Source: an uncultured Acidiphilium sp.
GTDB taxonomy: Bacteria; Bacillota; Clostridia; Christensenellales; Borkfalkiaceae
Length of the DNA: 38,167 nt
NCBI GenBank assembly: GCA_964482115.1
Contig: CAYZWD010000001.1
Coordinates: forward strand, 1-38,167
Direction: 5' to 3'
The notes beneath the pieces were generated by a model that was given only the letters and a program-made list of their open reading frames with translations, was not told the DNA's origin and did not search any database. Position 1 is the first letter of the stretch, and the number at the start of each line of letters is the position of its first letter. Below, piece after piece: positions 5,882 through 38,085 of this stretch. The translations under genes were made by a program, and so were the position numbers.

Positions 5882-8800
5882 TTAGCCCTCTAGCGAGAAA
5901 CCTGCACAAGTAACGGAACCGTTGTTCGCGAACAAGTAAGCCCTGTTAGTTATAGTACAAGACGTAAAGGTTATCTTATCGCCCGAAATAGTACCAACTA
6001 AGGTTTTACCTTGGTCACCTGAAATCGTCCTTGTGAAAGTAAAGGTAATTTCGTTACCGTTTAACACGGCGGTAAAGTCAAAGTAATAAGACGTTCCACC
6101 GCCGTATAACGTACCGGTTATCTCACCGCTAACGGCAAACTCTATTCTAAGCGTTTGAACGGCGTTTTCACCGTCTTTGTAGCTACCGGTGAAAGTTTTT
6201 CCTGCGAAGATAGAAACTTCAGCAAAGGTTTTGCTTTCTACGTTGATGCCGTAAGTTACGGCTACGCCGCTTGCGGGGGTTAAGGTAATAGCGCTACCGT
6301 TTACGTTGTAAGTTCCGCTTTCTGTACCGTGAGTGTAAGCGCCCTTGCCGTCTAAAACGAAAGCAACGTCGTCACCCGCTAAGGTGTAAGAACCCTCAAA
6401 GCCGTCCGAAGTGGGGATAGTATCCGAAGTAACGCCGTTATCTACGGAGAATTTAGTTAATTCTACGCCGTCGCGGGTTACGGTTATTATTCTTGCGCTT
6501 TCAACTTCTACCGTGTTGCCGGCGAGATCGGTTGCGGTAACGGTTACGTTAGCGTAAAGCTTATCGTTGCGCATAACGATAACCATGGTTTGCGAACCGA
6601 AATCAACCGTCATAATGCGCGTTTTGTTACTATCGAAGTTAACCAAAGCCGTTTTAGCAACGGTTACGTCGGTGGTTGAAACAACGTATACGTAAGTATC
6701 GGTGCCAAGCCCGTTGCTTAAACCGCTATAGTAGTTGACGGCAAATGCTTTTGCCGATGCATCGTAATAACCGAAATATTCGTCAGAGCCGCTAGTGAAA
6801 GTAAACGTGCCGGTTTCCGCATTATAGTTAGTGATTTTACCCGTTTTAAAGCCCGAAACGGTGCCGTCTGCCGCTATCGTCGTAAAGTTCATCTTATACA
6901 AATTAGAAGCATAATATACTTCAAATCCGCTATAAGTGCCGCATAAAGGCGAAGGATCGATATATTTAGCTTTATAAATATAAATAGCGTTCGTAAGCTC
7001 TGTGCTGACGGAGGCTTTTGCATCCGTATAATCAAGGCCGTCCATTAAATACCAGTCGTCGAATACTTTTCCGTCGTCAAGAACTCTGGTAAGTTTGGCG
7101 GGTATCTCTGTATCCGTTAATTTTTCGCTTTGGAACTTGTTAACCGTTTTTATGGGATTTACACCATCGTAATCATAGAATTGAACGCTTACGGGATAAT
7201 TGTATTCAGCATAGAATTCTACAAGTTCGGCATTGAGTTTAGTGCTAGAAGTTACCTTATCGCCCCATTCGCCGAGTTCGCCGTGCGCAGTGTAAATGCC
7301 GGCAAATTTCTTTTGCGTCGCATCGTAACCGGTGGGCGCGTAATTGTAAACCTTATAAGGAGCGGATTTGTCATCGCCAACGTAGCAATCGAGATCTTTT
7401 CCGGCGAAGGTTGCAAGAAGAGTAGTGCCGTCTTCATCGTAAATTTTTACTACTACTTGGTTTTTCCATTTTGCGTAGAAAGTAAAGGCATCTGAAGTAA
7501 GTATAAACGAAGATTCTAGCTTAGTACCCCATTCTCCGTCCGTTCCGTCTGCCGTGCACCAAGCTTCTAACTTCTTAGTTTTTTCATCACCGTCATATGC
7601 GTTGGTGAGGTAATTGGCACGGTCAGCCCACACGCCTACTGTATCGCCTACGTAATAGGTTTTAGAAAGGGTTCTTTCAACTTCGGTAGCACCGTCCATC
7701 CAAGTAAAGGTTACTTGTTTAGACCATTTTGCATAGAAATTAGTATCAGTTTCGGTAAGAACGGTAGCAGAGGTAACCTTAGTGCCCCAATCGCCGTCCG
7801 TACCGTCTAAGGTATACCATCCGTCGAAACGGTAGCCGTCCTTAGTGAGGTTAGCTATATCCGCCGATTTAACGGTGTCGTTTACGAAATAATCGGTTTT
7901 AACGGTAGTAGATTCGCCGTCGTGCAAAGTAACGGTGACGGCAGCTTCCCACTTAGCGTAAAGTGTCGTATCTTCAGAAACGGTGATTGCCTCGGTAGAT
8001 ATTTTGTTAGTTAAATCTTCGTCCGTAAACCAACCGACGAAGCGGTAACCGTCTTCGGAGAGGGCGGGAAGAACTACCCTTGCGTTTTTGCGTTCGGTTA
8101 AGGTCGTATCGCTCAAAGAACCATGACCGTTCAACGTGTAAGTTACGGTTACTTCAGGCGTAACGTCCGTAAGGTCGGTTTCGCCTATAGTTGCCTCGGT
8201 ATAAACGTCGTTAATGGTGAAGGCTATCTTTTTATCGGCGAGGTCTAAAATAGTATAGGTAGAAGTGCCGGGGTTAAAGTCTCCCGCGACGGTGATTATT
8301 CCGTTACCGTTTAAAGTGGCGGTTTCTTCGCCTAAAGTATAAGTGCCTGCAAATTGATCGATAGGCGCGGCGTTGGTTATTACTCTACCGTTTATGGTGA
8401 GGTTTTTAATATAAGCTGCGTCTAACCCTTTATCGACACCAGAGTCCTTTTGATAAGTAATTCTTATTTCTTTGTAACTAAAATCCGGGTGAACGTAAGC
8501 GGTTAAACGTTGCCAGCCCCAGCTATCGGGATCGGAAGCGTTTGCGCTATGATTGCCGCCTGCGGTTATCGTAGTTTGCTTAACGCCTTCGGCGTTACTG
8601 TAATATATTGTTAAATAATCATAGCTAGTTGCACTTTCGGATTCGCAGAAATAATCGAACGAAATTTCGGTTAAGCCCGAAACCGCCTCAAGCCTCAAAA
8701 GTGCGGTGCTGCTTTTAACGTGATAGTTATTCGACTTAAACGCGCCGATAGTTTCGTCGTAAACGAAAGTGTAAGTATTGCCTAACTCAACGGAAACGTC

Positions 8801-11239
8801 GCCACCCCAGCTGTATTTTGCGTAAACGGTGGTAAAGCCTAAGTCTTCTTGAGCAACGGCGTTATCGCTAATTCTGTTTTCAAAATCGGCGTCCGTATAC
8901 CAGCCTTCGAACTTGTAACCGTCTACGTAAGCGCCGTGCGCGGGTAAGCTTTCAACTATATTGTCGGATTCGTTTAAAACAACGGTCGTGCCGACGTAAT
9001 ATTTATCTACTATACCGATAGTGTAATAATCTTTCCAAGCGACGTAAATGATAGCACCGTTATCGTCTGCGGAAATCAACAAGGATTCTTCGATAACGAC
9101 TTCTGCCCCGTCGACTTTAACGTGCCAATTTAATACTTCGTAAGTAAAGCCGTCCGTTACGTAGCTTAAGCCGTATTGATCTTTAAGCGCGGCAACGATA
9201 GAATCGCCGTCTAAAAGCGTAACGGTAACGTCTGCGCGAACGCCTTTTTCATCTTTAACGGTTAAGCTTAGTTGCGCCTTAAATGCGGCGGTAAGCGTTA
9301 CGTTTGCAACAGGGGTGATAGTATCGCCGTCTTCATAAAGCACGTCGCCGTTTGCCCAGTTAACGAAAACGTAAGTTAAGCCGTCCGCACCAACGTAGTT
9401 GGGCGCCGCGGTAAGCGTATGCGGTACGTTTTTGTTTACTTCGTCAGAGTAAGTTCTGCCGTTTACCGATAAAGTTAAGGTAACCATAGGTTTGGTGGTG
9501 ACCAAGTTGCCGTCTTCGTCAACGGTCATTTCATAGTAAACGGGGGTTCCGTCTAAAACGAGTTTTACGGCAAGAGTGTTGCCGTCGGCAAGAACGACGT
9601 AAGTGCCGTTTACGTCGCCGTAAACTATGCCGCCGTGCCCGTCTACGTTAACGATAACCGAATCGTTGGTCGCGGGATCGGTAGTGGTATAAGTATCGGC
9701 AAAGCTGTCTAATTCGATAACGTCGCCGTCGACTAAGCCGTAGCATGCAATTTGCGAGCCGTCCTTAATTACGCGGAACGCGCTTTCGGTTTTAATAGCA
9801 CTAGCAGAAACTAAATCGCCCGCGAAATTTTTAAATACGACGCCGACGTAAACCTCTTTAGCGTCAACGTCTACGAATACGTTTACGTTGTTAGCTACGG
9901 TTGAATCTACGGCGTAGCTGATAGGTCTTACGGATACCCCGTCTACCTCGCGCATAACTTCGGTAGAATCGAACTTAGTAAGGTCGGCAGCCGTTTCGGA
10001 GGGAACCATTATAGAGAACCAAGCGTAATTTAACTCCACGGCGCCCTTATCGAGCTTAGCTTGCGGGAATACTATAACGTTAGAAGCCGCGTCGTAATAA
10101 GCGACGAATTCGAGGCTTCTGTCTTCAGAAACGTCGTCCAAGCCGCAGTCGGCATACGGATCGTGCGTTTCTGCGTAATGATAGCTAGCGGTTACTTTTA
10201 ATAAACCTTTAGTTTTATCGTCAAACGCGAAAGTGAGCGTAGAGTTTGTTATTTCGGAAGTGCAGCCGTCGCGACACCAACCGCCAGTAGAGGCTTCGCC
10301 GTTTTTATTAATCACGGTATCTTCCGCGCTGCCGTCAGCCAAAGTTATAAGCCCTTTAGCTATTACGCCGTTTGACCAGCCCTTGGTTTCAACCAAAGCA
10401 AAGGAGGCGTTTGCAAATTTAGCGGCATCGCAAACTTTACATTCGCCGTAAACGTCGTAATCGTGAGCGGCGTAGGCGGTGCCGGTTATTTCGGTTAAAG
10501 TAACTTTTGTGCCGTCAACGAACAAATCGCCGCATACCGTGCATTTTTTGTGCGCGGCTACCGCGTAACTTTCGCACGTAGCGGGAACGGCGGTAACGTC
10601 AATTAAGCTGTGAGCTGCAGCGGCTACTACGTCGTCTTCTGAAACTTCAGCGCCGTCGATAAACAATTTTCCGCAAGCCGTGCACTCTTCGTGCGCTATA
10701 ACGCCGTCTTCGGTGCAAGTAGCGGGAACGGCGGTAACGGGCGTTAAATCGTGAGCTGCAGCGGCTACTACGTCGTCTGCTGAAACTTCAACGCCGTCGA
10801 TAAACAATTTTCCGCAAGCCGTGCACTTTTTGTGCGCTATAACGCCGTCTTCGGCGCAAGTAGCGGGAACGGCGGTAACGTCAGTTAAGCTGTGCGCATC
10901 TCCGTTAACGGGAATTTCAACCTTAACAGAGCCGAAAAGCGAAGTGTAAGTTTTTTCGCCTTTTAGCATACACGTTGCGGGAACGGTGTTAGTAAGCGTC
11001 CACACGCTCGTATCCGAAAGAGCGGGTACGGGTACGGTTATTTCGTTGCCGCATTCACATTTGCCTATTAGTTCGCCCGCAGCGTCTTCAGTGGGAGCGG
11101 TGCCTTGCGTTAAATCGTAAACGTAAGCGTGGGTATGGTCCGCGATATCGCTACTACCGGACGAGCCTTGCCCGCATGCCGCACACAAAGAAAGCGCAAA
11201 CGCGAGTATCGCTATAAGCAGCAATTTCTTCTTCGTCAT
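5882..11239 (-). CDS. Giant surface lipoprotein (1785 aa). From the N-terminus it has Cys/His-knuckle tandem repeats, a long beta-rich region, about 8 Listeria-Bacteroides (Flg_new / InlB B-repeat type) repeats, and several small modules that each begin with a GTY/GSY motif.
   Basis: I place the start at the ATG that is the complement of 11237-11239 (MTKKKLLLIAILAFALSLCAACGQGSSGSS, signal plus lipobox-like AAC). GGAGG lies 10 nt upstream. The 60-aa extension in the ORF track is a translation of the upstream tandem repeat array. Flg_new-type motifs include GYKFEGWYTDADF...TVYAKY, GYRFVGWFTDEDL...TLYAKW and GYRFDGWYTLDGTDGDWG...NFYAKW. Confidence 0.9.
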   Translation of the reverse strand: MTKKKLLLIAILAFALSLCAACGQGSSGSSDIADHTHAYVYDLTQGTAPTEDAAGELIGKCECGNEITVPVPALSDTSVWTLTNTVPATCMLKGEKTYTSLFGSVKVEIPVNGDAHSLTDVTAVPATCAEDGVIAHKKCTACGKLFIDGVEVSADDVVAAAAHDLTPVTAVPATCTEDGVIAHEECTACGKLFIDGAEVSEDDVVAAAAHSLIDVTAVPATCESYAVAAHKKCTVCGDLFVDGTKVTLTEITGTAYAAHDYDVYGECKVCDAAKFANASFALVETKGWSNGVIAKGLITLADGSAEDTVINKNGEASTGGWCRDGCTSEITNSTLTFAFDDKTKGLLKVTASYHYAETHDPYADCGLDDVSEDRSLEFVAYYDAASNVIVFPQAKLDKGAVELNYAWFSIMVPSETAADLTKFDSTEVMREVDGVSVRPISYAVDSTVANNVNVFVDVDAKEVYVGVVFKNFAGDLVSASAIKTESAFRVIKDGSQIACYGLVDGDVIELDSFADTYTTTDPATNDSVIVNVDGHGGIVYGDVNGTYVVLADGNTLAVKLVLDGTPVYYEMTVDEDGNLVTTKPMVTLTLSVNGRTYSDEVNKNVPHTLTAAPNYVGADGLTYVFVNWANGDVLYEDGDTITPVANVTLTAAFKAQLSLTVKDEKGVRADVTVTLLDGDSIVAALKDQYGLSYVTDGFTYEVLNWHVKVDGAEVVIEESLLISADDNGAIIYVAWKDYYTIGIVDKYYVGTTVVLNESDNIVESLPAHGAYVDGYKFEGWYTDADFENRISDNAVAQEDLGFTTVYAKYSWGGDVSVELGNTYTFVYDETIGAFKSNNYHVKSSTALLRLEAVSGLTEISFDYFCESESATSYDYLTIYYSNAEGVKQTTITAGGNHSANASDPDSWGWQRLTAYVHPDFSYKEIRITYQKDSGVDKGLDAAYIKNLTINGRVITNAAPIDQFAGTYTLGEETATLNGNGIITVAGDFNPGTSTYTILDLADKKIAFTINDVYTEATIGETDLTDVTPEVTVTYTLNGHGSLSDTTLTERKNARVVLPALSEDGYRFVGWFTDEDLTNKISTEAITVSEDTTLYAKWEAAVTVTLHDGESTTVKTDYFVNDTVKSADIANLTKDGYRFDGWYTLDGTDGDWGTKVTSATVLTETDTNFYAKWSKQVTFTWMDGATEVERTLSKTYYVGDTVGVWADRANYLTNAYDGDEKTKKLEAWCTADGTDGEWGTKLESSFILTSDAFTFYAKWKNQVVVKIYDEDGTTLLATFAGKDLDCYVGDDKSAPYKVYNYAPTGYDATQKKFAGIYTAHGELGEWGDKVTSSTKLNAELVEFYAEYNYPVSVQFYDYDGVNPIKTVNKFQSEKLTDTEIPAKLTRVLDDGKVFDDWYLMDGLDYTDAKASVSTELTNAIYIYKAKYIDPSPLCGTYSGFEVYYASNLYKMNFTTIAADGTVSGFKTGKITNYNAETGTFTFTSGSDEYFGYYDASAKAFAVNYYSGLSNGLGTDTYVYVVSTTDVTVAKTALVNFDSNKTRIMTVDFGSQTMVIVMRNDKLYANVTVTATDLAGNTVEVESARIITVTRDGVELTKFSVDNGVTSDTIPTSDGFEGSYTLAGDDVAFVLDGKGAYTHGTESGTYNVNGSAITLTPASGVAVTYGINVESKTFAEVSIFAGKTFTGSYKDGENAVQTLRIEFAVSGEITGTLYGGGTSYYFDFTAVLNGNEITFTFTRTISGDQGKTLVGTISGDKITFTSCTITNRAYLFANNGSVTCAGFSLEG
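10437..10900 (-). repeat. Tandem 141-bp (47-aa) coding repeats, about 3.3 copies. The two central copies are about 91% identical at the DNA level.
   Basis: The units at 10578-10718 and 10719-10859 differ at about 12 of 141 positions by manual alignment. The flanking copies are more diverged. The encoded unit is H-x-L-x-x-VTAVPATC-x-EDGVIAH-x-x-C-T-A-C-G-KLFIDG-x-EVS-x-DDVVAAAA. Confidence 0.9.
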
Positions 11240-11296
11240 GATAAAATGACCTCCATCTTTAAAATTTTCGGTTTTTTTGCCGATTTTTTTATTTTT

Positions 11297-11448
11297 AAGG
11301 TTTTTTGCGGGCGTTTTTGCGCCCCCAAAGGTTTTTTGCGGGCTTTTTGCGCCCCCAAAGGTTTTTTGCGGGCTTTTTGCGCCCCCAAAGGTTTTTTGCG
11401 GGCGTTTTTGCGCCCGCAAAGGTTTTTTGCGGGCGTTTTTGCGCCCGC
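11297..11448. repeat. Array of five tandem 30/31-bp units, each containing an inverted repeat. It lies between the promoter and the RBS of the 1785-aa gene.
   Basis: The units are 11297-11326, 11327-11356, 11357-11386, 11387-11417 and 11418-11448. Units 4 and 5 contain the perfect palindrome tttgcgggcg-tttttg-cgcccgcaaa (10-bp arms). Units 1-3 carry one or two substitutions or indels in the arms. Confidence 0.95.
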
Positions 11449-11478
11449 AAATAAAAACACTTATTTCTAGACTGTATA

Positions 11479-11507
11479 ATTATACAACAGTTTGGAATTT
11501 TTTGCAA
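11479..11507 (-). promoter_or_regulatory. Near-consensus sigma-A-type promoter driving the 1785-aa lipoprotein gene.
   Basis: Minus strand reads TTGCAA (11502-11507), a 17-nt spacer, then TATAAT (complement of 11479-11484). The predicted leader of about 230 nt contains the five-unit array. Confidence 0.7.
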
Positions 11508-11613: not shown

Positions 11614-11727
11614 CAAGACTAGATTACGCCGCGCGGCGGCGCTGCTACGCGGTTCGGCTCGTTTTTCGCGCTCGCTCAGAATGACGAAAAACGCAATTCA
11701 AGCCGAGATTCCGCCGCGGAGCGGGCG
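11614..11727. repeat. Copy B of the repeated intergenic element, immediately 3' of the 1355-aa gene stop codon.
   Basis: caagactagattacgccgcgcggcggcgctgctacgcggttcggctcgtttttcgcgctcgctcag (11614-11679) matches copy A. A second caagccgagattccgccgcgg motif lies at 11699-11719. Confidence 0.75.
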
Positions 11728-11728
11728 A

Positions 11729-14700
11729 TTAGCCTATTACGGTTAAGCCGCCGGTTTCGTTGCCGATTTCGTCTATTTTTACGGTTACTTGCCTGCCGGA
11801 GGCGTAAGTTATTTGAATTTTTGCACCGCTCGTAAACGAAGTGCCGCTTATATAGCTTACGGTTACGCTTTCGCCAAGCACCGTGCGCGACGACGACGCG
11901 TAATAATCGTAGCCGCTATCCGTTCTTACTGCGCGCAAGATTAATTCGCCGTTGCCGGCAAAATCGGTTGAACGAGCCGCAAAATATTCTGAAAATTTAA
12001 CTATGCCCGTGCCTTCCAGGTGCAATAAGCTGTTTTTCAAGCGACCGTTAAACGTGTACACCTCGCCCGCGTCGGTAGTTGCCGTGGCGCTGAACTGCGT
12101 GCCGTCGGCTGAAATAACCGCGTTGCCGCTGTATTTTACGCCGTTCGAGGTAAGCGTTAAATAGCCGTATTCGTCTATTACGAGCGTGCTGTTGCCCGAG
12201 AACGACCTTTCGAACGTGCGAACCACGGCTAAGCCCTCGTATTTTTTATCGATTACCTGAATTCCGTAATATAACTTTTTGTTAACCCCGCCTACGTTTA
12301 CGGTTACGTAGAACTGATAAAATCCGGGGGTCGAAAACGCTATTGCCGAAGTGTATACCGCGGTTTTTTTCTGCTCTGCGGTAAGTTCGCCGTCTTCGGT
12401 TATTACGGTTATGGTGCTTAAAAAGTCGCTAAGAGAAGTGCCTTTTTTAACGGTGTACGAGCTGACTTTTACGATTGCGCCGTTTAAACTTACGCTTTCG
12501 AAGCCCTCTCCTACGGTTAAGCCGCTTTCAGCCGTTAATACCGTTAGCGTGTTGCCGTCCGCATTGAGCGCTACGTCGGCGCCCGCGCCGTACGTAAGCG
12601 ATTCGCCTAAGTAGCTTATAATCGCGCTAGCCCCGCGCTTTTCGTATTCGAAAAGAACTTTTTCGTAAGAAGTGAGGTTGTAATTGGCTACACCCAAACC
12701 GTAGCCGTTAAAAAATACGTATTTGCTTGCGGTTTTGTTTGTGTATAGCCCGAAAAATTCGTCTTTGACTATAAGCTCGAAAGTTTTCGCTTGTACGTTT
12801 AACGCAAACTTATAACTGAACGGATAAATTTCTACCTTTTCTTCGTCCGTATCCTTAATAGCCTTTACCGCCGCGCGTAAATCGGTAGTGTAAGAAACGC
12901 TTTGCGTGTTTTTGGCTTTGTTTACGGTTACTATTTTTGCGCCGTGAACGGTAAAAGTGCCCTCGGCTACGTTGCTGGAATTGTAACCTAAACCCGAAAG
13001 GTCGTACATAGAAAAACTAAATAACGACTCAGTGCCCACCGTTAGCGACGCGGTTGGCGTTTGCGCTAGGTTAAGCGTTGCCGACACGCCGTTTATCGCA
13101 CCCCTAAAGCTACCGGAATACGCTTGCTCGGATTCGGAATCCACAACGCTCGCCTTGCTTTCCGAAGAAATCCTGAACCCGTAAGTTTCGCCAAGCAACG
13201 TTACCGCGGACGTTACGCCCACGGTTTTTTCAAAGCCGTCGGCAAAAACCGCCTCTCCAAAGGTTATTTTATAATCGTAATCGCTTGAAGCATGCGAATA
13301 TAAATACGTTTTTAAACCGTACCACTTATAGCCGCCGTCGATTAGATTTTTTACCTTGAAAAGGTCTATAGAATAGTTGGCGGTGTCGCCCTCTAAAACG
13401 TGCTTGCCCGACTTTGCGGAATTAATTGCGAACGAATCGACTATTTGCCACTGCGCCGCGTTAAAATATACTATCGGACGGGTAACGTTGGTTAGTTTCA
13501 TGCGCAAATAGTTATCGTAAACCAAAACGGCAACGCCGTTATCGTAACTTAAAATAAAGTTAGAGCGCTCTAACGTAAGGCGGAAATCGCCCGCCCCAAC
13601 GCCGCTAACGTCGCTTGCCGATTTGCCGTTTACCGTAATAGCCATATCCGAACTAATCGTCATGTCGCCGATTTGTTGCGATTTTACGGCGTCGTCAACG
13701 ACTAAGCCCTCGTCGTCGTAAGTGGCGGAAGAACCTATGGTTAAAAGCGAAGTTTTATACGTGCCTATCATGCCGCCGTCTATAACCGTTACGTTCGCCG
13801 TTTTTTGCCGTTCTTTATATTCTAACGTTAAATCGTAAGAGCCGAGGGCGAACGGATTGAACGAGCCGCTTATCATATCCGGCGTTACGGCTATGCGCAT
13901 GCCTTCGTCCGTAACGGTGAAAAGCTTCGTTATATCGAGCGAGTAGCCCACCGTTATTACCTTGTTTTGCGCGGTTATTTCGGTGTTGCCTATCACTACG
14001 GCGTCGTATTCGATATATACGGGATCTGCCGTTACGCCGTTTACGTATACCGCCACCCTTACGGTGGTTTTGCCCGTTTCGTTTACGTTTACGCCGTTTT
14101 TTACCTCCGCATAACAAGCCGTGTAGCCGTTTGCGTTGGATCTATCCGCGGTTAGGGTTTGCGGTAAGCCGTTTAAAACAAGCTTTATGTTGCTTAACGC
14201 GTTGAACGACGCGCCTTTTTTAATTTCTACGCGGCTTTGCTCGGTTGTGAGCGTATATTCGTTTCGTACTACTTGATACGTTACTGTTTTTTCGGGATAA
14301 GTGAATTTTACACCCGAAAGACCAAAGCTTTTTTCGTTATAGCTGAGCTTTAACGTTACGGAATAACTGCCGACTATGTCGAAATTTACGTCGTCTACCC
14401 CGATTAAATAAGAAGATAGGTCGCTGAACTCAACGCCGTTAACGCTTACTTTAAAGTCGGCTGAAAAATCGTACGTCGCCTTAGGCGTGCCGCTCTTTAT
14501 TATTACTTCGCTAGAACGCGCGTAATCGATTATTACGCCGTTTTTTACCGTTACCGTTGCGGTTGCCACGCGCCCTTCGTAATTGAGCGTTACCGTATAA
14601 TCGCCGCCAACCGAATAATCGACCTCTCCGCTGAGCATATCGTAAGTAACCGACACGGGCTTACCGTCACGCGTTATTTCAAACAGCGAAGTGGGTGCTA

Positions 14701-15796
14701 CGTTTGCGCCGTTAATAAACGCTTCCGCGTTGCGCGCGGTTATTATAACGTTATCTTCGATTATTTTAACGCGTAAGTTCGTAACCTCGCCGCCGACGGT
14801 TAGCTTTACTAGGCAAACGTCGCCTAGCTTTGCGTTCGTTACAGCCGAATCGTCTATCATGTCGGCGGTGACTTCTGCCGCCGCACCGTTTTTGTATAGA
14901 TAAAAATCGCTAACGTAATCGCGCGATTTTGCCTCTGCCTCGGGTAAAAGCAAGCAAGAATACGCAGCATGCGCGATATATACGTCCGCCGCGCTTACGG
15001 TAACGTTTAACGTAAGCGAAACGCCGCCCCTTGCAAAAGTTAACGCGTATTCGCCCGCCTCGGCTTTGACCTCGCCGCCGAGCATCGAGTTGGTTACCGT
15101 GAAAGGCTCGCCCTCGCGCGAGGCGGAAAATAACGAGCCGAAATCGTAATCCGCTACTTGCGAAACGTGAATTTTTACGCTATCTTGCGCAAGCGCCGCT
15201 TTGTAAACCGCCTCCGTTACGTTTATTCTTACCGTGGCGCGCTTGCCCTTATACGTGCAAGAAATTACGTACGTGCCGCGTTGGTTTTTTAGCCCGGTTA
15301 GGTCTATATCTTTATTTTCTAACTCTACGGTTTCGCCGCTTAACGAAACGCGGAACAGCGAAGCGAAGTTATAATCGGCAAGTTCGTCGTCTTTTAAATC
15401 GACTTCGTCTGAAAGCGCCGTTACCGAAACGGGTGCGGAAGAGTTTACGTGCACGGTTATTTCAGCCGTTTGGTCTTTTACGGTGCAATAAACTTTATAA
15501 GTACCTACCTCCGCTTTTACCGCGGAAGAATTTATATATTCCGCCTTGGTCGCATATCTGTTACCGTCACCGTATACGGTGAAAAATACGGTGTAGTCGT
15601 AACCCACGGCGTTTTCTTCAACCAGCGTTACGTCCGACGAGTTAACTGCTATTTCTATCATTTTGCAGTTTTCGACGCTAGGTAAGTCGGGTGACGGAGC
15701 GGGGTTTTCGGCGTTACTCTTTCCGCACGCCGCCGCCAAAGCCGAAAACGCAAGCGTTATTACCAGCAATATCGTAATTGCCCATCTTTTTTTCAT
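11729..15796 (-). CDS. Giant surface lipoprotein (1355 aa). It has about 8 tandem Ig-like repeats (DUF5011-like pattern) followed by about 670 aa of beta-rich sequence of unknown function.
   Basis: I place the start at the ATG that is the complement of 15794-15796 (MKKRWAITILLVITLAFSALAAACGKS, lipobox), with GGAGG 8 nt upstream. The ORF track start at 15811 is a TTG lying upstream of that RBS. Repeat ends recur every 75-85 aa: GTYKVYCTVKDQTAEITVHV, GTYVISCTYKGKRATVRINV, GEYALTFARGGVSLTLNVTV, GDYTVTLNYEGRVATATVTV and GSYDLTLEYKERQKTANVTV. Confidence 0.9.
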   Translation of the reverse strand: MKKRWAITILLVITLAFSALAAACGKSNAENPAPSPDLPSVENCKMIEIAVNSSDVTLVEENAVGYDYTVFFTVYGDGNRYATKAEYINSSAVKAEVGTYKVYCTVKDQTAEITVHVNSSAPVSVTALSDEVDLKDDELADYNFASLFRVSLSGETVELENKDIDLTGLKNQRGTYVISCTYKGKRATVRINVTEAVYKAALAQDSVKIHVSQVADYDFGSLFSASREGEPFTVTNSMLGGEVKAEAGEYALTFARGGVSLTLNVTVSAADVYIAHAAYSCLLLPEAEAKSRDYVSDFYLYKNGAAAEVTADMIDDSAVTNAKLGDVCLVKLTVGGEVTNLRVKIIEDNVIITARNAEAFINGANVAPTSLFEITRDGKPVSVTYDMLSGEVDYSVGGDYTVTLNYEGRVATATVTVKNGVIIDYARSSEVIIKSGTPKATYDFSADFKVSVNGVEFSDLSSYLIGVDDVNFDIVGSYSVTLKLSYNEKSFGLSGVKFTYPEKTVTYQVVRNEYTLTTEQSRVEIKKGASFNALSNIKLVLNGLPQTLTADRSNANGYTACYAEVKNGVNVNETGKTTVRVAVYVNGVTADPVYIEYDAVVIGNTEITAQNKVITVGYSLDITKLFTVTDEGMRIAVTPDMISGSFNPFALGSYDLTLEYKERQKTANVTVIDGGMIGTYKTSLLTIGSSATYDDEGLVVDDAVKSQQIGDMTISSDMAITVNGKSASDVSGVGAGDFRLTLERSNFILSYDNGVAVLVYDNYLRMKLTNVTRPIVYFNAAQWQIVDSFAINSAKSGKHVLEGDTANYSIDLFKVKNLIDGGYKWYGLKTYLYSHASSDYDYKITFGEAVFADGFEKTVGVTSAVTLLGETYGFRISSESKASVVDSESEQAYSGSFRGAINGVSATLNLAQTPTASLTVGTESLFSFSMYDLSGLGYNSSNVAEGTFTVHGAKIVTVNKAKNTQSVSYTTDLRAAVKAIKDTDEEKVEIYPFSYKFALNVQAKTFELIVKDEFFGLYTNKTASKYVFFNGYGLGVANYNLTSYEKVLFEYEKRGASAIISYLGESLTYGAGADVALNADGNTLTVLTAESGLTVGEGFESVSLNGAIVKVSSYTVKKGTSLSDFLSTITVITEDGELTAEQKKTAVYTSAIAFSTPGFYQFYVTVNVGGVNKKLYYGIQVIDKKYEGLAVVRTFERSFSGNSTLVIDEYGYLTLTSNGVKYSGNAVISADGTQFSATATTDAGEVYTFNGRLKNSLLHLEGTGIVKFSEYFAARSTDFAGNGELILRAVRTDSGYDYYASSSRTVLGESVTVSYISGTSFTSGAKIQITYASGRQVTVKIDEIGNETGGLTVIG

Positions 15797-16046: not shown

Positions 16047-18872
16047 TTAGCCGTTCAAGGTCCAGTTGTAAGCGGTGCTTTCAAGCTCTATCCAGAAAGT
16101 TCTGGTCATGTTGCTTTCAACCCTTATTCTTAAACCTAGCTCTTCGCTTACGTAGCAAGTGTATTGGCTGCTGCCGCGCTTACCGGTGTTAGCGCTGTCT
16201 AACGCAAAGCCGCATTTGCCTAGTTCGCTGGTTAAAAGCGCTATAATGTCTGCGTAGAACGGGGTGATTTTTAAGTTCTCGTCGCACAAATCGTAAGAAA
16301 CGGTGAACGAAAGACCTTCTAAATAAGTGGTTGCGCCGCTAGAATTTACGCCGTTTTCAACATATTCGTGCCAAGGCCCGTTAAGTCCGTCGCGGAAGGC
16401 TTTGCTTAATGCGGCGGGAATCTTGTTGAAGTTTTGGTTTTGAGCAATCGTCGTGCCGAAAATCTTTTCGACGGCGGCGTCGCCGCGTAAATATTCCATA
16501 GTGCCGATAGTAGAGTAATCGGCGTAATATTTTATCGAAGCAAAGTCTGCCCAAGTGGAGGGAACTACCCTTGCTACGTAATTATCCCAAATGCCTTCGG
16601 GCAATTCGGTAGAGTTAACGTTCGAATAAGTAGTGGTGTAATAACCGCCGTACATACCCGCTATATCGTAAGCGTAACCTACGGACCTTAATACGCCGTC
16701 GCTATCGACAGAGATAAGGAATGCGTTATCCGCGTTCATAGAAGATACCGCGTCAGACGCGTAATCCGCAAGAGTCATAGCGTAAGCTACTTCTCTAGTG
16801 ATTGCGGAATCTTTCAAAGCAAAGGTGTAAAGATATTTATCCGTGCCCTTAATAGACTCCATTTTTTGGAAATCGAAAACGTAAGGCGAAACTTTGAAGT
16901 CGGGAAGTAAATCCGCAAACTTACCGTCCTTTCTGCGGGTTCCGGTTAACGCCCTGTTATCGTATTTGTATTCAAATGTTTCGTAAGTGTTGTCTGCGTT
17001 TTGTTTATATCCGTACGCTTCGGTGTGATAGGTGTAATCGTCCAGCGTGTAAGAGTATTGCCCCGTTTCGTTGATGAGCGCACCCTCTTGGGTAACTACC
17101 CCGCGAACGCCTACCGTGCCGCTGGTAGAAAGATAGTTGCGGATCGAAATTTCGCTAGTATCGTTACGCTTGCCGTCGTCTTCGGCAGCGGCGGTAACGG
17201 AATAGCTAGAAACGCCGCTCATATCGTAATCGTTAGGATCGAGCGAGGGAGCGTATCTCTGGCTTTCAACCATACTAAAGGTATAGCTTTCAACCCGACC
17301 ACTCATGTTGGAGAGCGCGGTGCTTAAAGCGGCGAAATAAGTCTTAACGCCTTCGCCTACGGTTTCGGAATAAGGAGCGGGGCTAGCGACTACGGTGCTG
17401 CCGACGTCTTCAAAAGTAAAGGTACAAACGGTGTTTTGATAGCCTATTACCTCTTCGCCGCCTTCTTCGTCTACCTCGTAAAGGTTAATTTCTGCGGTGG
17501 TTGCCACGATTTGATCGATAACCTTGCCGCCCTTGCCGTCCGATTTTAAGAAAATACGGAATTCGTCGAATTGATCGCCCGAACCTAAAATCGGGGTAAA
17601 CGACCAAGCGATATAAGCCATTAACCATTCGTCTTCACTCGGAGTGTATTCGTAGGTTTGGAAAATCCAATCGTATTCGATCGTTCCGGGTTCGATATCG
17701 TAAGTGTAAATATCGTTTTCTTCTTCAACGAACTTGCCTAAAACCAAGCCGTCTAAGTGGTTCCAGAAGTGCCTGCCGTCGTGCGAGTTCTCGTCGGAAT
17801 CGTACCAAACGATGGGGTTGCTATTCGAATCTTTAAGCTGTTTTGCTACGCTTTCGTTATCCTTATTAACGTAAAGCTCGTTTACGTAATAGTTGCCGTT
17901 GCCGTCCGAATTGCCTTTAGCGTAAGTATTTGCGTTAACGGTGGGGTTTTTAACGCCCGCAACGCTCGATTCGCCGTACCAACGGTCGCCGTCCATTTTA
18001 ACTACGGTATTATATATCGTATCGCGGCTGTTGCCGTCCGACGAGCTGTTATATTTAACTACGTCTTTAATAACGGCGTTTACGGTTATTTTTTGGTTTG
18101 CAATATTATTGAGCATGTCTTGGGTAAGATCGCCGACGCTGCCCTCTTGAAGTTTGTTTTTAACGGTGATTTCGATTTCTTCAGACAAAGTGCTTAATGC
18201 GTTAGAGGTTACCGTTACCGTTACGGGCACGCCCGCTTTGGGAAGCTCCTTGTTTTCGTCTGCAACGACTAAAACGTTGTTAGCCGAATCGTATCTAACC
18301 AAACCTTCGTAACCCTCGGGTTCTTCGAAACTAACGCTGAAAGACGTATCGTCGTAAGGCAAGTTAGAAATGCTAACGTCTAAACGGATAGCGTTTTCCG
18401 TGCCGGGGCGAAGTACGGTTTTAGCGCTTTCTGAAGTTACGCTTTTAGCCGCAACGGTTAATACGGGTCTGGTTGCCGCACTGTTTTTTAATACCTTTAT
18501 GTTTTTGGTTTTGCTGATAGACGTATCGCGAACCAATTCGACGGTAATAGCAACGTCGGTATCAACCTCAACGCGGGCGGCGTCCGCCACCTTTAAGAAG
18601 AAGTTAACGCTGTCTGCGGAGGTTTCTGAAATTATCTCTACCAAAGAGGGGTTGCCCGAAACGATGTTATAAGCCGAATCGTCCGAGACTGCTACTACGA
18701 CGGGAAGTTTTTCGCCGTTTTTGATGGTGCTTGCAAAACTAACGCTGATAGTGGGCTTGTCGTTTGAGCCGCTGCCGTCGCCATTGTTTTTACAAGCGAC
18801 GAACGAAAATGCGGTTAACAGCGCAACTACCAATGCAGTTAAGCGTTTTGCGGTTAATGCAAATTTTTTCAT
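16047..18872 (-). CDS. Surface lipoprotein (941 aa). It has two N-terminal Ig-like modules plus a domain of about 700 aa of unknown function, and is a paralogue of the 819-aa gene upstream.
   Basis: MKKFALTAKRLTALVVALLTAFSFVACKNNGDGSGS carries the lipobox FVAC. GGAG lies 8 nt upstream of the ATG. Collinear motif matches to the 819-aa protein are listed in the findings. Confidence 0.9.
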   Translation of the reverse strand: MKKFALTAKRLTALVVALLTAFSFVACKNNGDGSGSNDKPTISVSFASTIKNGEKLPVVVAVSDDSAYNIVSGNPSLVEIISETSADSVNFFLKVADAARVEVDTDVAITVELVRDTSISKTKNIKVLKNSAATRPVLTVAAKSVTSESAKTVLRPGTENAIRLDVSISNLPYDDTSFSVSFEEPEGYEGLVRYDSANNVLVVADENKELPKAGVPVTVTVTSNALSTLSEEIEITVKNKLQEGSVGDLTQDMLNNIANQKITVNAVIKDVVKYNSSSDGNSRDTIYNTVVKMDGDRWYGESSVAGVKNPTVNANTYAKGNSDGNGNYYVNELYVNKDNESVAKQLKDSNSNPIVWYDSDENSHDGRHFWNHLDGLVLGKFVEEENDIYTYDIEPGTIEYDWIFQTYEYTPSEDEWLMAYIAWSFTPILGSGDQFDEFRIFLKSDGKGGKVIDQIVATTAEINLYEVDEEGGEEVIGYQNTVCTFTFEDVGSTVVASPAPYSETVGEGVKTYFAALSTALSNMSGRVESYTFSMVESQRYAPSLDPNDYDMSGVSSYSVTAAAEDDGKRNDTSEISIRNYLSTSGTVGVRGVVTQEGALINETGQYSYTLDDYTYHTEAYGYKQNADNTYETFEYKYDNRALTGTRRKDGKFADLLPDFKVSPYVFDFQKMESIKGTDKYLYTFALKDSAITREVAYAMTLADYASDAVSSMNADNAFLISVDSDGVLRSVGYAYDIAGMYGGYYTTTYSNVNSTELPEGIWDNYVARVVPSTWADFASIKYYADYSTIGTMEYLRGDAAVEKIFGTTIAQNQNFNKIPAALSKAFRDGLNGPWHEYVENGVNSSGATTYLEGLSFTVSYDLCDENLKITPFYADIIALLTSELGKCGFALDSANTGKRGSSQYTCYVSEELGLRIRVESNMTRTFWIELESTAYNWTLNG

Positions 18873-18924: not shown

Positions 18925-21384
18925 TTACTCTGCCCAAAGGTACACGAATAAATCTAAGCCTTCGTCGGCGGGCTTAATAACCAAGTTGCAGCCCGCTTTT
19001 CTGTATTCTCCGCTACCGTCCGCAGCTTTTGCGAACCCTTTAGCCTTTAAAAACGCGTCTATCTTGTCTAGCGAAGAATTAATCGTATAGTCCATATCCA
19101 GCGGAACGTCGTAATAAAGCTTAACGGTGCTTATAGCTTTATAAGAGTTGCCTACCGGTTTTTGATATATTTGAGGCATGCCTAAGCCGAAAGTATCGCC
19201 CAAAGCGTCCGCGTCGCTGAAGAAAGGTATTTCTTCGGCGGTTATGCCGCTAAGCGCGGGTATGCCGTTTTTACCGAAGAAATAGCTAGCAAAATAATCG
19301 CCCGCGGGAATTAAAGTTTCGGTTTCGTATTCGGCAATGATGGCCACGTCGTTCCATTTAGTGGGTAGCGGCTTAGAATCAAACGCGTTTATGCGCGCTA
19401 AGTCTTTATCCGCAACGGTTGCCGTGTTAAAATCGGAATAAGTAATATCTACCACGCCGTAAAAACCTTGGCTATCTATGCTGTAATAAAAGCCCGAACC
19501 TACTATATAATAATCGCCGTTAACGGCTTGAACGTCTACGTAAGTGGCGAACTCGGTAGTTCCGCTAACGCCTATAGCCGCAAATAAGCCGTAAAGGTTT
19601 ATATCGTTGCCTACGCCGCTATAAAACTCGGTTGCCACGGTAGACATTGCGTCGTCCGCGATAAAGCGGGTAAGCTCGGCTTCTTCGTCGTAATAACAGC
19701 CGCGGTTGAATATTTCCGCACAGAAATCGAAATCGGGAGTGGCGTCGCTAACGCTGCCGCGATAAGAACGCGTAGGCGCGTAAGTATAATCGCCGTCCGC
19801 AGTTTCGGTATAAAAGAAGGTGTTGTAAACGCCGAGATAATCGTCGCTGTTTCTGTACCCGTAAGAACCTTCGTCCGTAAAGATTTCGCTACTTGCGTAA
19901 GAAGAAGTGTACGGGCGGAAGTAACATACGTCTTGGGTTACTACTTCTTGATAACCGCTAACCGTGGTAGAGGCAAGCCCTTGCATTGCCGAAACGTTGA
20001 TAAGCTCGGTTTTGTAAGAGGTTAACGCTTGCATGTTGGCTATTGCGGTTTGAAGTTTGCGGTATTCCGCTTTGGTGGGCGCGTCTTCGTAATCGTCGAT
20101 TTTAACGTAGCCTCGCATTACGGGAACTTCGGCAGAATCGGACGCGTCTAGCGCGACGTAAAGCCTTTGTTTTGCCATATAGCCCGCTACTATAGAATAA
20201 TCTTTGCCCGAAGCGGCGCATATACCTATAATTTCGCCGTCGTCGATTATAAGCTCGAACGTGCCGTTATCGTCTACGAAAAAGTCGTAAGGATCGCACG
20301 AGGCGATCATGTTTTTAACGAGCTCGCTGCCCGCGTATTTGTATTGCCAACGCCAAGATTGTTCGTTGAACGTAAAGTCTGCCGCGGTTAAACCTTTAAA
20401 GCAGTTATAATAACCCGCTTCCGACCAAAGAACCTTTTCTCCGTTTGCGGTTTTTAAGGGATAACGGCTTAAACGGTTGTTAAAGTCTAACGTGGTTTCG
20501 CACGCGTAACCTTGGTCGTCGCACTCGAAAAAGATTTGTTGGCTTATACCTACGCTTGCGTTTTCATACTCGGCATACCACTTGCCCGTTTCCATAGCCG
20601 TGCGCATGGTTACCGTGTTAGACTGAACCAGCGTTTCGCGTACGCCGCCCGAGCCTAGGTCGGTTTCGGTGTAAATATCTATCATTATAAAGCCGTCGAA
20701 CGAGATGATTTCGTTTTCGCCGCAAAGTGCTTGAACCATTTCGTCGGTAAGCTCGGTTTTAGCAACCGAAGTTACGGCTTTGGTGGCTTTTACCGTGGGA
20801 TCGGCTTCGGAAACGGCAGTTACTTTTAAAATTTTATCGCCGGTAACGTCGCTACCCGTAAACTCTATTGAATTAGCGGTTTTAGCGCCCTCTATAGCCG
20901 CGCCGTCGTTTTCAACCTCGAACTTAATCTTTTTATCGGCTTCGGTTTGCGCGCCGCTTATTTGTGCGGTGAACTTAACCGTTTGCCCCGCTTTTACGGT
21001 GGCGGTTTGCTTGCCGTCTACCGTGCAGTCGAGCGAAATTTCGAGTTTTGCGGGCGTTTGAACGTTTGCCGTAAACGTAACCCGTTGCGACGCGGGCGAA
21101 ACCGAATAACCTTCCGCAAACGCTTTTACGTATATAACGCTATCTACCGTGGTATCGGCTAAGTTATAAGAAGTTTGCTCGGTTTGGTTTTGCGCCTCGT
21201 TTATAAATACGTAGTAGCCTTGCGCATTTTCAACCGCGCCCCACGTTATTAACCCGTCGTCGCTGACGGCAACGTTTTGGGGGGCGGAAAGCGCCTTAGG
21301 CTCGGTAGCAATTAAATCGCATGCCGCCGCGCTTACGCACAAGCAAGCCACTAGCAACAAACATATAAGTTTTTTTAGTTTCAT
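18925..21384 (-). CDS. Surface lipoprotein (819 aa). It has an Fn3-like module, an Ig-like module and a domain of about 600 aa of unknown function, and is a paralogue of the 941-aa gene.
   Basis: MKLKKLICLLLVACLCVSAAACDL is a signal peptide with a lipobox. APQNVAVSDDGLITWGAVENAQGYYVF is an Fn3-type motif. The GGAG RBS directly abuts the stop codon of the preceding gene (RBS 21392-21395, stop 21396-21398). Confidence 0.9.
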   Translation of the reverse strand: MKLKKLICLLLVACLCVSAAACDLIATEPKALSAPQNVAVSDDGLITWGAVENAQGYYVFINEAQNQTEQTSYNLADTTVDSVIYVKAFAEGYSVSPASQRVTFTANVQTPAKLEISLDCTVDGKQTATVKAGQTVKFTAQISGAQTEADKKIKFEVENDGAAIEGAKTANSIEFTGSDVTGDKILKVTAVSEADPTVKATKAVTSVAKTELTDEMVQALCGENEIISFDGFIMIDIYTETDLGSGGVRETLVQSNTVTMRTAMETGKWYAEYENASVGISQQIFFECDDQGYACETTLDFNNRLSRYPLKTANGEKVLWSEAGYYNCFKGLTAADFTFNEQSWRWQYKYAGSELVKNMIASCDPYDFFVDDNGTFELIIDDGEIIGICAASGKDYSIVAGYMAKQRLYVALDASDSAEVPVMRGYVKIDDYEDAPTKAEYRKLQTAIANMQALTSYKTELINVSAMQGLASTTVSGYQEVVTQDVCYFRPYTSSYASSEIFTDEGSYGYRNSDDYLGVYNTFFYTETADGDYTYAPTRSYRGSVSDATPDFDFCAEIFNRGCYYDEEAELTRFIADDAMSTVATEFYSGVGNDINLYGLFAAIGVSGTTEFATYVDVQAVNGDYYIVGSGFYYSIDSQGFYGVVDITYSDFNTATVADKDLARINAFDSKPLPTKWNDVAIIAEYETETLIPAGDYFASYFFGKNGIPALSGITAEEIPFFSDADALGDTFGLGMPQIYQKPVGNSYKAISTVKLYYDVPLDMDYTINSSLDKIDAFLKAKGFAKAADGSGEYRKAGCNLVIKPADEGLDLFVYLWAE

Positions 21385-25000: not shown

Positions 25001-28000
25001 TTTCGTAAAGCGTTATGCTCTTTAAGCCCGACCGCGCGAACATTGCGTAAGAAAGCTTAGTGTGTTCGTTGGTTATAACTTCGGTAAGAGCGGTACAATC
25101 TTTAAACGCCTCGCGCCCGGTGTTGCGCAACGTTTCTAAGTTGACGGATTTAAGCGAAACGCAGCCGTCGAACGCGCGAACGCCTATCGAAGTTATTTTT
25201 TCAAGATTGATAACTTCTAGCTTTTTGCACGCCGCGAACGCTTGCGCGCCGATAACCAGCACGTCGCCGCCCAGCTCGCCCGATGCGCTTACGCTTTGAA
25301 CGCCGCCGTTTATTACGCGGGTGCGGATATCTTTGAGTTTAACGTCGCCGTAGAACGAATATTCGCGAATATATTTTAAGGTAGTGGGAAGAACCACGCT
25401 TTCGAGCTTAACGCAATTATAGAACGCGTATTTTTGAATTTCTTCAACGCCCTCGGGTATAATCACGCGGGTTACGAACGAGTTGCCGTCCGGAACTTTA
25501 TTCGCGTCGTAATCGTCGTCGTCTAAAATAACGTCTCTATCGGTGGTGTATAAGCAGAACGCGTAAGAACCGATATACAAAATACCCTCGTCGTCGGGAA
25601 TTTCTACCTCGCCGCCGATGCCTTTATAGGCTATAAGCGTTCTGTTTTCTATTACGAACGGATTTTTAACTTCTATACCTACCGTTGCCGATATGTAAGA
25701 AATAGCGCCCGTTTGCTTGTTTTTGGCTTTCAGCGTTACCGTTACGTAGCCCTCTGCCAAAGCGCGAACGTTACCCTTTGCGTCGACCGAAGCTACCGTG
25801 GGATCGGTAGTTTCGTAATACAATTCGTAATTAGAAGCGCAATGCCAAGGCGTAACCTCGTAATAAAGCGTAACGCGCTCGCCGGGGTACATTTTTATAG
25901 TGCCGTTAGAAGCGGAAATAAAGTTGACCGAACCGGTTGAACCTATCTCGCTGGTTTGCGCTGCCAAAGCGTGTGCGTAAGCCGTTTGGAAATGCGAAAA
26001 ACGAATTTCTTCAAGCCCGCCGTCGTTGTCGAACGGAGTTACTCCGACTTGCGCGGAATCGCTCGGGCGCGAACCCTTTTTAACGTTGATTATAACCACG
26101 GCTTGCAATCCGTCCATTCTCTCGCGAACGGTTACGGTTGCGCGCCCCGAAGTTAAGGTTTTAACCACACCTTTATCGACCTCTATAACGTTCTCGTTAG
26201 AACTTATCCAAGTGAGGTGGGATAAATAGTCTTCGTTTTCTCTGCTTTCGCCGATGGTTTCGTCTGCCGTGTAAAGATATTTTTTGAGGTCTATAAGCTC
26301 GTTTTCGTACGCGGTGAAAATAATTAAGTCTTCACCGTTGTTTTCGCCGTTTTTGGTGAACTTGAATTCGCCCGCCGTACCGGGAAGCTGACATACGAAA
26401 ATGTTAGTGTTCAACGCGTAGTCGTCGATAGAGAAACAAATCGCGTTGGGTATTAACGAATCGTTATAAATATCCTCTAAATAGTCGGTTATTTCAAAGG
26501 TGAGCGTGCAATCTTGCCCCTTTTGCCCGTTTACGGGAATGGGAACGTCGGTTAAGAACGTGTAGGTTGAGCTCGAAGTGAAAATAACCGGGTTAACGGA
26601 CATCGCGTAGTGATTATCGTATACGGTGAGCGTTATATAATAACGGTATTTTTTCTCCGTTTCGTCGTATTCGCGGGTGTATTCCGCGTTTTTGAGGATA
26701 GGCGCTTCGTTATCCATAGTGAATTCGAAGCTGAACGAATTGTTTTTGTTGGTATATAATCCGCCGGGATTTTCCGCGTCGTCTAAATTATAATCGAGCA
26801 AGCCCGTCATCGAGAACACGTATACGTGGTTGTTTATAAACCCTTGTTGCAACGAATAAAGCCTGAGCGATTCGTAATAAGGCATCGGTGCGCCCGAGGG
26901 TGCGTACGATTTGCTCGCGTTGTGGTCTATAAAGCTCCAAACCACTTCTCCCGTAACTTTGTCCGTTACGGTGTAATACATTTCCTTAGCGCCGCGCAGT
27001 AAGCCCGCGCCGATAGTGCTTATGCCGTCTATCGCGCCTAACGTGTCCGAAACGGAGGCGTGCTCTTCGGTCGCGGGGATAGCGTCGTAAGCGCCGGTAT
27101 CGTAAAGATACGTACCGAGCGGAATCATGTAGTTATAGAAATACGAACCGTAAGGCGTGGTTGCGTAATAATCCGCCTTAATTTTGTCGTCGTAATCGAT
27201 AGCGTCGTCGTGTGCGGTAGATTCAACCTCATAATAGGTTTTATCGAACATGGGCGCTTCGGTCCAATCGCCGTAGAAAGCAAGGAAAGGCGCGTTTAAG
27301 TCGACTTCGCCGTTGCCTATCGCCTTGAACTTTAAAAAGCCCTCTACGTACATGCCGTTTTCAAAATGCGAATCTATATACTTTTTATCCGCAGCGTCGA
27401 GCGTGTAAGTAACTTCTACCTTAACGGACTGCCCCGCCGGAACGGTTATTCTGCCGCTCGTAACTTCGGTAGCGGTAGTGCCGTTTACCGTTTTAACGAC
27501 GGTTGCCCCGCCGAGCATATACGGCGTTTCGGCTACGTGCTTATCGTCCGAAGTGGAAACGCTTTCGGTCATCGCTACGAGCGAACAATCGTAAGAAACG
27601 GCAGACGAAGATATGTTAACCACGTTCACGGTCATGGTGTAAACGCCGGTGCGGTTTTTATCGTCGCCGAGTTCGATTTTGCTGCGGTCTAAGCCGTCTA
27701 CCGTGATATAAGCTTTGGTTTTAACGGTGTTTGCAAAATTTGCAAGCCCCGCGCCTTGTTTACGCGGCGAATAGGGGTTGTTTTCTTCGTTTTTAACGAT
27801 ATCCGCGGTGGACATCATTAGTTGGTTAGCAAGGTTTTTAATATCCTTGTCGCTCAAATTAAGCGATTGCTTGTAGTTATCCTTTATGTATTGACGGATT
27901 AAAACCACTATACCGCAAAGGTTGGGCGTTGCCATCGACGTACCGGACATCTGGTCGTAGCGGTATTGAACATTTCCGTTATCGTCGGTATAGCTGCCGG

Positions 28001-38085: not shown

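Follow-up and report, generated by a model that had tools for sequence, protein, structure and literature searches.

In lactic acid bacteria, proteases of the cell-envelope proteinase (CEP) type supply the Opp importer with peptides. A comparable pairing was found in the stretch of DNA analysed here, positions 1 to 38,167 of contig CAYZWD010000001.1 (assembly GCA_964482115.1), hereafter called the window, where 12 consecutive minus-strand genes running from 38085 to 5882 (defined by open reading frame (ORF) listing, translation and Pfam) encode an Opp-type importer, a giant S8 serine protease and a series of large lipoproteins. Like this locus, the lactococcal system of PrtP, PrtM and Opp has a surface S8 protease from the same clade, with a PA domain set into the catalytic domain and Fn3-like domains behind it, as well as a neighbouring lipoprotein and a five-part importer. 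However, lactococci encode prtP/prtM apart from opp, at different loci, whereas here importer and protease lie in one conserved array. The lactococcal protease is anchored by LPXTG and sortase, while here the protease family carries a lipobox and/or a C-terminal transmembrane (TM) tail. The rotamase lipoprotein PrtM of lactococci has no counterpart here in Pfam and NCBIfam scans, and the present locus has in addition a leucine-rich repeat (LRR) region of 900 amino acids (aa) and about 5000 aa of lipoproteins.

Three other described systems bear comparison. ScpA/ScpB and SpyCEP share the architecture of S8, PA and Fn3 domains with residues 224-928 of our protease, but they are LPXTG-anchored, act on narrow host substrates, have no co-encoded ATP-binding cassette (ABC) importer and carry no LRR_5 repeats. 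The dentilisin complex of Treponema denticola (PrtP, PrcA, PrcB) likewise joins an S8 lipoprotein protease to accessory lipoproteins of the same operon; yet that complex sits in the outer membrane of a diderm, its protease is far smaller, its operon lacks an importer, and its likeness to the present cluster is functional. The combination of binding lipoproteins, enzyme and transporter also follows the logic of polysaccharide utilisation loci, both the SusC/D type of Bacteroidota and the ABC type of Gram-positive bacteria. The proposed substrate here is, however, a protein and not a glycan, this resemblance too is functional, and neither SusC/D homologues nor glycoside hydrolase domains were found in Pfam scans of all products. 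Full-text literature searches turned up no published description of the cluster, in agreement with a first-pass annotation of the window, made from the letters alone, which knew of no description of the arrangement as a unit. The genes are listed below in their order of reading.

35338-38085, minus strand: SBP, a family-5 substrate-binding lipoprotein of 915 aa (Pfam SBP_bac_5)
33821-35191, minus strand: OppB-type permease of 456 aa (BPD_transp_1, E 1e-31, residues 243-453)
32731-33828, minus strand: OppC-type permease of 365 aa (OppC_N and BPD_transp_1)
31540-32709, minus strand: OppD-type ATPase of 389 aa (ABC_tran and oligo_HPY)
30326-31540, minus strand: OppF-type ATPase of 404 aa (ABC_tran and oligo_HPY)
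30091-30333, minus strand: S80, a membrane protein of 80 aa (reading frame and candidate starts, conserved position)
22029-29960, minus strand: S8 serine protease of 2643 aa (Pfam Peptidase_S8, PDB profile matches)
21396-21974, minus strand: lipoprotein of 192 aa, an accessory member (lipobox LLAGC)
18925-21384, minus strand: lipoprotein of 819 aa, the marker protein of the cluster (AF2 model, family alignment)
16047-18872, minus strand: lipoprotein of 941 aa, a paralogue of the 819-aa protein (hhalign, AF2 model)
11729-15796, minus strand: lipoprotein of 1355 aa (Big_3 repeats)
5882-11239, minus strand: lipoprotein of 1785 aa, the variable last gene (Flg_new, E 2e-25)

The run of twelve genes and the domain identities that the first-pass annotation had named (SBP, permeases, ATPases, S8, Big_3 and Flg_new) were borne out by the ORF listing and the Pfam calls, respectively. 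We are highly confident that the block is one conserved functional unit, and the evidence comes from its linkage in other genomes. One genome per GTDB species was scanned with an alignment (A1) of close homologues of the 819-aa protein, for which a word-indexed protein search had given just 13 such homologues, one of them named Candidatus Borkfalkiaceae. By this profile scan a relative of the 819-aa protein is encoded in 106 GTDB species genomes, and the best 80 of the 106 loci were retrieved with 10-kb flanks and compared by BLAST of the window proteins against the six-frame ORFs of each locus. All 80 distinct loci are collinear on a single strand in the order OppD, OppF, S80, S8, 819-aa, 941-aa and 1355-aa, with the accessory 192-aa gene between S8 and the 819-aa gene and the Flg_new giant at the end where these are present. 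The core from OppF to the 1355-aa protein is complete in 58 of them, and among the remainder many loci lie on short contigs. Conservation of gene order in relatives was a test set beforehand, and to the 80 collinear loci are added five of five contexts in which the importer runs contiguously into S8. That the block might be a chance neighbourhood of unrelated same-strand units, as the large gaps and the promoter-like site in the window could indicate, is a reading refuted by this synteny and given practically no credence, as the same order is held at a locus GC content of 0.28 to 0.60 and at 819-aa identities as low as about 31%, by genes that mostly overlap or nearly abut.

The conservation is graded along the array, the median identity to the window being 78% for OppD, 73% for OppF, 48% for S8, 44% for S80, 36% for the 819-aa protein, 32% for the 1355-aa protein and 31% for the 941-aa protein. 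This gradient fits a conserved core with a putatively exposed, fast-evolving outer part. Junctions are tighter in the relatives than in the window, with median gaps of -11 nucleotides (nt) from OppF to S80, 21 nt from S80 to S8, 51 nt from the 819-aa to the 941-aa gene and 42 nt from the 941-aa to the 1355-aa gene. The 192-aa family occurs in 50 of 76 loci and is missing from 26, in about 20 of which the S8 gene lies directly against the 819-aa gene. A homologue of the 1355-aa protein follows the 941-aa gene in 65 loci at a query coverage above 60%. The last gene is variable: a Flg_new giant is usual in relatives, at BLAST coverages of mostly 4-15%, and is absent in some loci, as in L005, where the cluster stops after the 1355-aa homologue. 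Since the linkage is conserved and the lipoproteins match no characterised family, the suggestion of one dedicated unit made from the sequence is well supported.

The importer half was followed in five SBP contexts (L087-L091) from different lineages, including one low-GC and one high-GC contig, and SBP, OppB, OppC, OppD, OppF, S80 and S8 are contiguous in every one of them. Directly upstream of SBP, all five encode a further lipoprotein, about 380-412 aa long and carrying a weak Flg_new repeat (L087:8566-9804, L088:8834-9985, L089:8816-9997, L090:8836-9978 and L091:8793-9998), at a gap of 2-22 nt in four contexts and 196 nt in L087, while the genes preceding it differ among the five. The window stops 82 nt upstream of the SBP start. 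As the relatives have this extra lipoprotein upstream of SBP, the module is truncated by the window and comprises thirteen genes in full, so that it does not lie wholly inside the window as had been assumed; the whole array measures roughly 34 kb. L089 also encodes, just upstream of the main cluster (L089:1-8547), another giant S8/LRR protease, of 2492 aa, together with a lipoprotein of 223 aa and the end of a Big_3 protein, an arrangement suggestive of a partial duplication of the surface part.

As to function, we consider with modest confidence that the locus probably serves extracellular proteolysis coupled to peptide import, because an Opp-type importer is conserved beside a tethered CEP-type protease that is predicted to be active. 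The membrane-tethered S8 protease would cut extracellular proteins at the cell surface, and the Opp-type importer with its enlarged lipoprotein SBP would take up the released peptides. The BspA-type LRR region and the lipoproteins with Ig, FN3 and Flg_new domains could hold the protease and/or its substrate, or the surface that carries the substrate. The variable last protein may be the most exposed part, the 819/941 paralogue pair would act together, and S80 may link the importer to the surface components. The protein substrate, the peptide cargo and the physical assembly of the products are all points that we infer from sequence. A more ambitious proposal, in which the thirteen products form one membrane-anchored 'protein utilisome' of a single-membrane bacterium, with the 819-, 941- and 1355-aa proteins as a novel capture platform surrounding the giant protease, itself tethered at both ends, S80 coupling this platform to the importer and the whole acting as a core nutritional organ of reduced-genome gut Christensenellales, is tentative and on the whole doubtful.

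The protease consists of a Peptidase_S8 domain (residues 227-738) with a PA domain inserted at 535-601, followed by fn3_5 (763-884), Big_2 and eight LRR_5 stretches, which make up a long BspA-type region of about 900 aa ahead of a C-terminal helical tail. Its residues 224-928 align to structures of C5a peptidase, SpyCEP and 'cell envelope proteinase' at E values of 6e-57 to 1e-52, the alignment to ScpA covering residues 224-918, and on these alignments the enzyme is placed in the cell-envelope proteinase/C5a-peptidase clade. It is expected to be active because the catalytic Asp236, His320 and Ser675 and the oxyanion Asn378 are invariant in 67/67 family members. Of the 67 relatives, 56 have a lipobox, 51 close with a hydrophobic segment and basic residues after it, and 48 show both, so that the protease is predicted to be normally membrane-tethered at both ends. 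A C-terminal LPXTG motif is absent from the window protease, and LPGTA, which occurs once inside the chain at residue 1192, does not constitute a sorting signal. Besides, a flanking secreted protein of 492 aa (644-2122), with a weak match to DUF4424, ends in a hydrophobic segment and a basic tail (…RQKKHRPRG), a C-terminal membrane anchor that resembles that of S8 in most relatives.

All five sequence-defined parts of an Opp/Dpp-type (PepT family) importer are present by Pfam, namely the SBP, two BPD_transp_1 permeases (one with OppC_N) and two oligo_HPY ATPases. The SBP matches SBP_bac_5 in two stretches at E 5e-25 (88.8 bits against a cut-off of 32.4), and is about 350 aa longer than the usual OppA, with a large internal insertion. 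It has more than 3000 homologues, of which the best 120 are 860-950 aa long and 52-96% identical. OppB, which OppC overlaps by 8 nt, measures 456 aa in the window, 455-457 aa in L087 and L091, and 320-335 aa in L088-L090, and the longer form suggests a lineage-specific insertion. Both ATPases (30326-32709) end in C-x6-C-x2-C-x3-C with a later Cys in the oligo_HPY region, and these cysteine-rich ends recall the iron-sulphur-binding C-termini that some Opp ATPases are reported to have.

The gene for S80 is wedged between OppF, whose stop it overlaps, and S8 in 62 loci. Its product has a basic N-terminus, the motif Y[VI]DDGHT[VI]Y.M, of which the DDGHT part looks invariant in an alignment of relatives, a K/R-rich helix and one C-terminal TM segment ending in LWL, and it gave no Pfam or NCBIfam match.

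The first-pass annotation had assigned lipoboxes to six proteins of the window. Four of these fit the PROSITE-style pattern, while SBP (FTGC) and the 1785-aa protein (CAAC) are near-matches only. In the homologues examined the Cys is conserved, and a relaxed pattern that also takes these two near-matches was found in 92 of 120 SBPs and in 55-70 of the 64-81 members of the 192-, 819-, 941- and 1355-aa families; the count excludes the 1785-aa protein, which has no full-length homologues. Other surface anchors (C-terminal LPXTG signal, SLH, LysM, choline-binding) were not found by Pfam or motif check, just as none had been noticed by eye. Pfam and NCBIfam gave Ig-type or Flg_new repeats, or nothing, for the lipoproteins, and none of them matched a characterised family in Pfam, NCBIfam, PDB profile or Foldseek searches. 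In Pfam and NCBIfam, neither a rotamase nor any other significant domain was detected in the 192-aa lipoprotein. The 1355-aa protein carries Big_3-type Ig repeats (Big_3 being found in 25/28 family members) and then about 650 aa with no family match. The 1785-aa protein is built of Cys-containing 47-aa repeats, Flg_new (Listeria-Bacteroides) repeats and C-terminal domains with no assignment; near its N-terminus, the 47-aa units appear as a 141-nt tandem repeat at 10573-10897 with paired cysteines (…VPATC.EDGVIAH..CTACGKLFIDG…).

BLAST detected no paralogy among the lipoproteins. Comparison of the family alignments by hhalign, however, aligned the 819- and 941-aa families over 755 columns with a probability of 100% and E 5e-121, so the two are by profile comparison full-length remote paralogues; the 192- and 1355-aa families are unrelated to this pair by the same approach. 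The AF2 model of the 819-aa protein (pLDDT 83) has FN3 and Ig domains and then three beta-rich domains with single helices, and that of the 941-aa protein (pLDDT 72) shows the same order of elements. Among 1.84 billion representative sequences searched by profile, about 70 (representatives at 50% identity) cover the 819-aa body, other strong matches hitting only the FN3/Ig positions of unrelated repeat proteins. Because so few representatives cover it, the body defines a narrow, lineage-restricted family, and in the 80 loci examined it always lies within this cluster. PDB sequence-profile searches with the 819-, 941- and 1355-aa family alignments gave no credible match.

Whole multi-domain AF2 models were run in Foldseek against the PDB only. 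The 941-aa model matched cadherin/Ig-like structures through its N-terminal domains only, and the 819-aa model matched Ig/FN3 domains, with marginal matches to LolA (TM 0.36 on the target), DUF1329 and TbpB that are too weak to assign such an identity to its domains. These weak matches are nevertheless what would suggest scavenging from partner cells, in which LolA-like half-barrels of the 819/941 pair would bind lipids or other hydrophobic compounds and reduced-genome bacteria would attach to other cells and strip material from them; reduced-genome Christensenellales have indeed been proposed to take metabolites from other cells (PMC12306168). We give this explanation little chance, as the matches are marginal and come from a multi-domain model, the importer is classed as peptide/nickel (PepT) and not as a lipid transporter, and threonine (thr) biosynthesis genes stand beside the cluster in L091. 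The top Foldseek matches also include the S-layer proteins SbsB and Sap, through Ig-like arrays only, and with them comes another explanation to which we likewise attach a low probability, namely an envelope-building system in which the lipoproteins form a coat, the protease matures them and the importer recycles fragments. The products are all membrane-anchored and very large, and the 819/941 pair suggests a structural heteromer, as such a system would have it; but the structural similarity is weak (TM about 0.1) and owed to generic Ig domains, Pfam showed neither an S-layer nor a cell-wall-binding domain, and enzymes of the CEP type that carry PA and Fn3 domains are known to work on external substrates.

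Several observations weigh against coupled proteolysis and peptide import. The window's own protease has neither of the two membrane anchors: it and its nearest relatives begin with a signal peptide that has an AXA-like site and end in a helical stretch, so that in this lineage retention at the cell would need an uncleaved signal or binding to a partner. The SBP is too divergent for its ligand to be read off the sequence, its best PDB match being an OppA at just E 3e-6 and its NCBIfam match to Opp4A falling far under the cut-off (67.9 against 650 bits), and family-5 SBPs bind nickel, opines and oligosaccharides too. Foldseek, profile and domain scans give no functional clue to the bodies of the 819-, 941- and 1355-aa proteins. 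On the regulatory side, CodY-box matches are not above chance (5 against 3.3 expected) and no riboswitch was found by Rfam scan of the window and three related loci. The gaps of 130, 250 and 489 nt in the window, with a promoter-like site and hairpins, mean that the block may here be read as several transcripts. Furthermore, the solved structures closest to the protease are ScpA/ScpB and SpyCEP, and ScpA and SpyCEP serve virulence, not nutrition, by cleaving immune mediators of the host; LRR_5, Flg_new and Big_3 are modules typical of adhesins.

The last of these points lead to an apparatus for colonisation or host interaction, in which the repeat proteins would be adhesins, the protease would, in the manner of streptococcal C5a peptidase or SpyCEP, cut proteins of the host or of competitors and the importer would be linked to them on other grounds, for example to take up signalling peptides that the protease sets free. 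The BspA-type LRR_5, Flg_new, Big_2 and Big_3 modules and the nearest solved relatives of the protease speak for it, as does the hypervariable last gene, which is what an exposed adhesin or antigen would show. We nonetheless regard it as unlikely. The loci come from human, chicken, goat, sheep, deer and rabbit sources, mostly gut, by their record titles, and the keeping of the cluster across all of these points to a host-independent core function; the entire 2500-aa protease, LRR region included, is about 48% identical; and the overlap of OppF with S80, followed by the protease at a median of 21 nt, is hard to explain without a joint function of importer and protease.

Coupled proteolysis and import would also suit the organisms that carry the locus, which are small-genome, uncultured gut Firmicutes, at least Christensenellales such as Borkfalkiaceae and CAG-314. 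All 80 records appear to be metagenome-derived, most titles reading MAG (metagenome-assembled genome) or uncultured, and the titles are unreliable for taxonomy, the labels Acidiphilium, Bacteroides and Staphylococcaceae being plainly wrong; clustering of the 819-aa family does not cleanly separate the low-GC loci labelled Bacilli or Mollicutes. Genomes of one carrier genus are 1.3-1.4 Mb (PMC8035907), so that the locus would take up about 2.5% of the genome, and reduced-genome Christensenellales are without many biosynthetic pathways (PMC12306168). Some carriers keep amino-acid biosynthesis genes nearby, the thr genes adjoining the cluster in L091 being a case. The conservation of the locus suggests that it is central to the life of these common uncultured gut organisms.

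We rate the locus as a proteolysis-plus-Opp system whose genetically fused architecture is new, as are several of its protein families. The parts that are scattered in dairy lactic acid bacteria are here fixed in one array, which also holds at least three families without known relatives. Bacteroidota have transporter-centred utilisation complexes, of which the array may be seen as a Gram-positive counterpart. For biochemistry, the targets that offer themselves are the protease domain, the enlarged SBP and the 819/941 pair, and the locus may hint at culture conditions, for example feeding with protein or peptides.

Within the window, the intergenic gaps in gene order are 146, -8, 21, -1, -8, 130, 54, 11, 52, 250 and 489 nt. 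The description of the junctions as small gaps or overlaps thus holds for most of them and fails for the last two. Direct reading of the junction confirmed that OppD and OppF are coupled through TAATG, and the 26-nt overlap reported between OppF and S80 stands if S80 starts at ATG 30351 but shrinks to 8 nt if the start is GTG 30333. The 250-nt gap contains an 11-bp GC hairpin with no proper T tract, and the 489-nt gap contains a promoter-like site and then a set of tandem hairpin units; these and the terminator that closes the module are as follows.

11507-11479, minus strand: promoter-like site TTGCAA-17 nt-TATAAT (consensus match only), in the 489-nt gap
11297-11451, no strand assigned: five tandem 31-nt hairpin units (TRF: period 31, 5.1 copies, 97% matches)
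5781-5810, minus strand: two-way intrinsic terminator closing the module, a 13-bp stem between an A run and a T run

The 31-nt units (repeat family D1) are GCGGGCG/CGCCCGC hairpins between A/T runs and score as terminator-like sites on the plus strand, antisense to the genes. The matching gap in L007, a 70%-identity relative, is only about 100 nt long, too short for the five units. An ORF of 1845 aa starting at TTG 11419 was rejected as an artefact; its first 60 codons are a translation of the tandem hairpin repeat, and the 1785-aa protein truly starts at ATG 11239. The 13-bp hairpin at 5781-5810 is the only strong minus-strand terminator, as the first-pass annotation had it, and the minus-strand terminator-like sites inside the block are weak, lie within coding sequence and are not above shuffles. 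The next gene past the terminator (3354-5459) has its own promoter-like site at 5557-5529 with 11/12 matches. A 105-aa ORF at 5532-5849 was rejected as a gene as it spans the terminator and a REP-like repeat. No Rfam families were found in the window or in the three related loci.

The REP-like repeat is an intergenic element of about 70 nt with the pattern GAGCGAGCGCGAAAA...GAGCCGAAC...GCCGCC.CGCGGCGT.ATCT. Its two copies, at 11625-11690 and 5650-5715, are 79% identical, and each is placed just 3' of a giant lipoprotein gene. In L003, a DUF559-like ORF of 96 aa is called where the element would sit. Apart from these, two coding repeats were observed outside the block, an in-frame tandem repeat at 2612-2657 that gives a histidine phosphatase an N-terminal (NAK)n stretch, and an 18-nt repeat at 3728-3793 that encodes GAENNS units in a 701-aa protein with no assignment.

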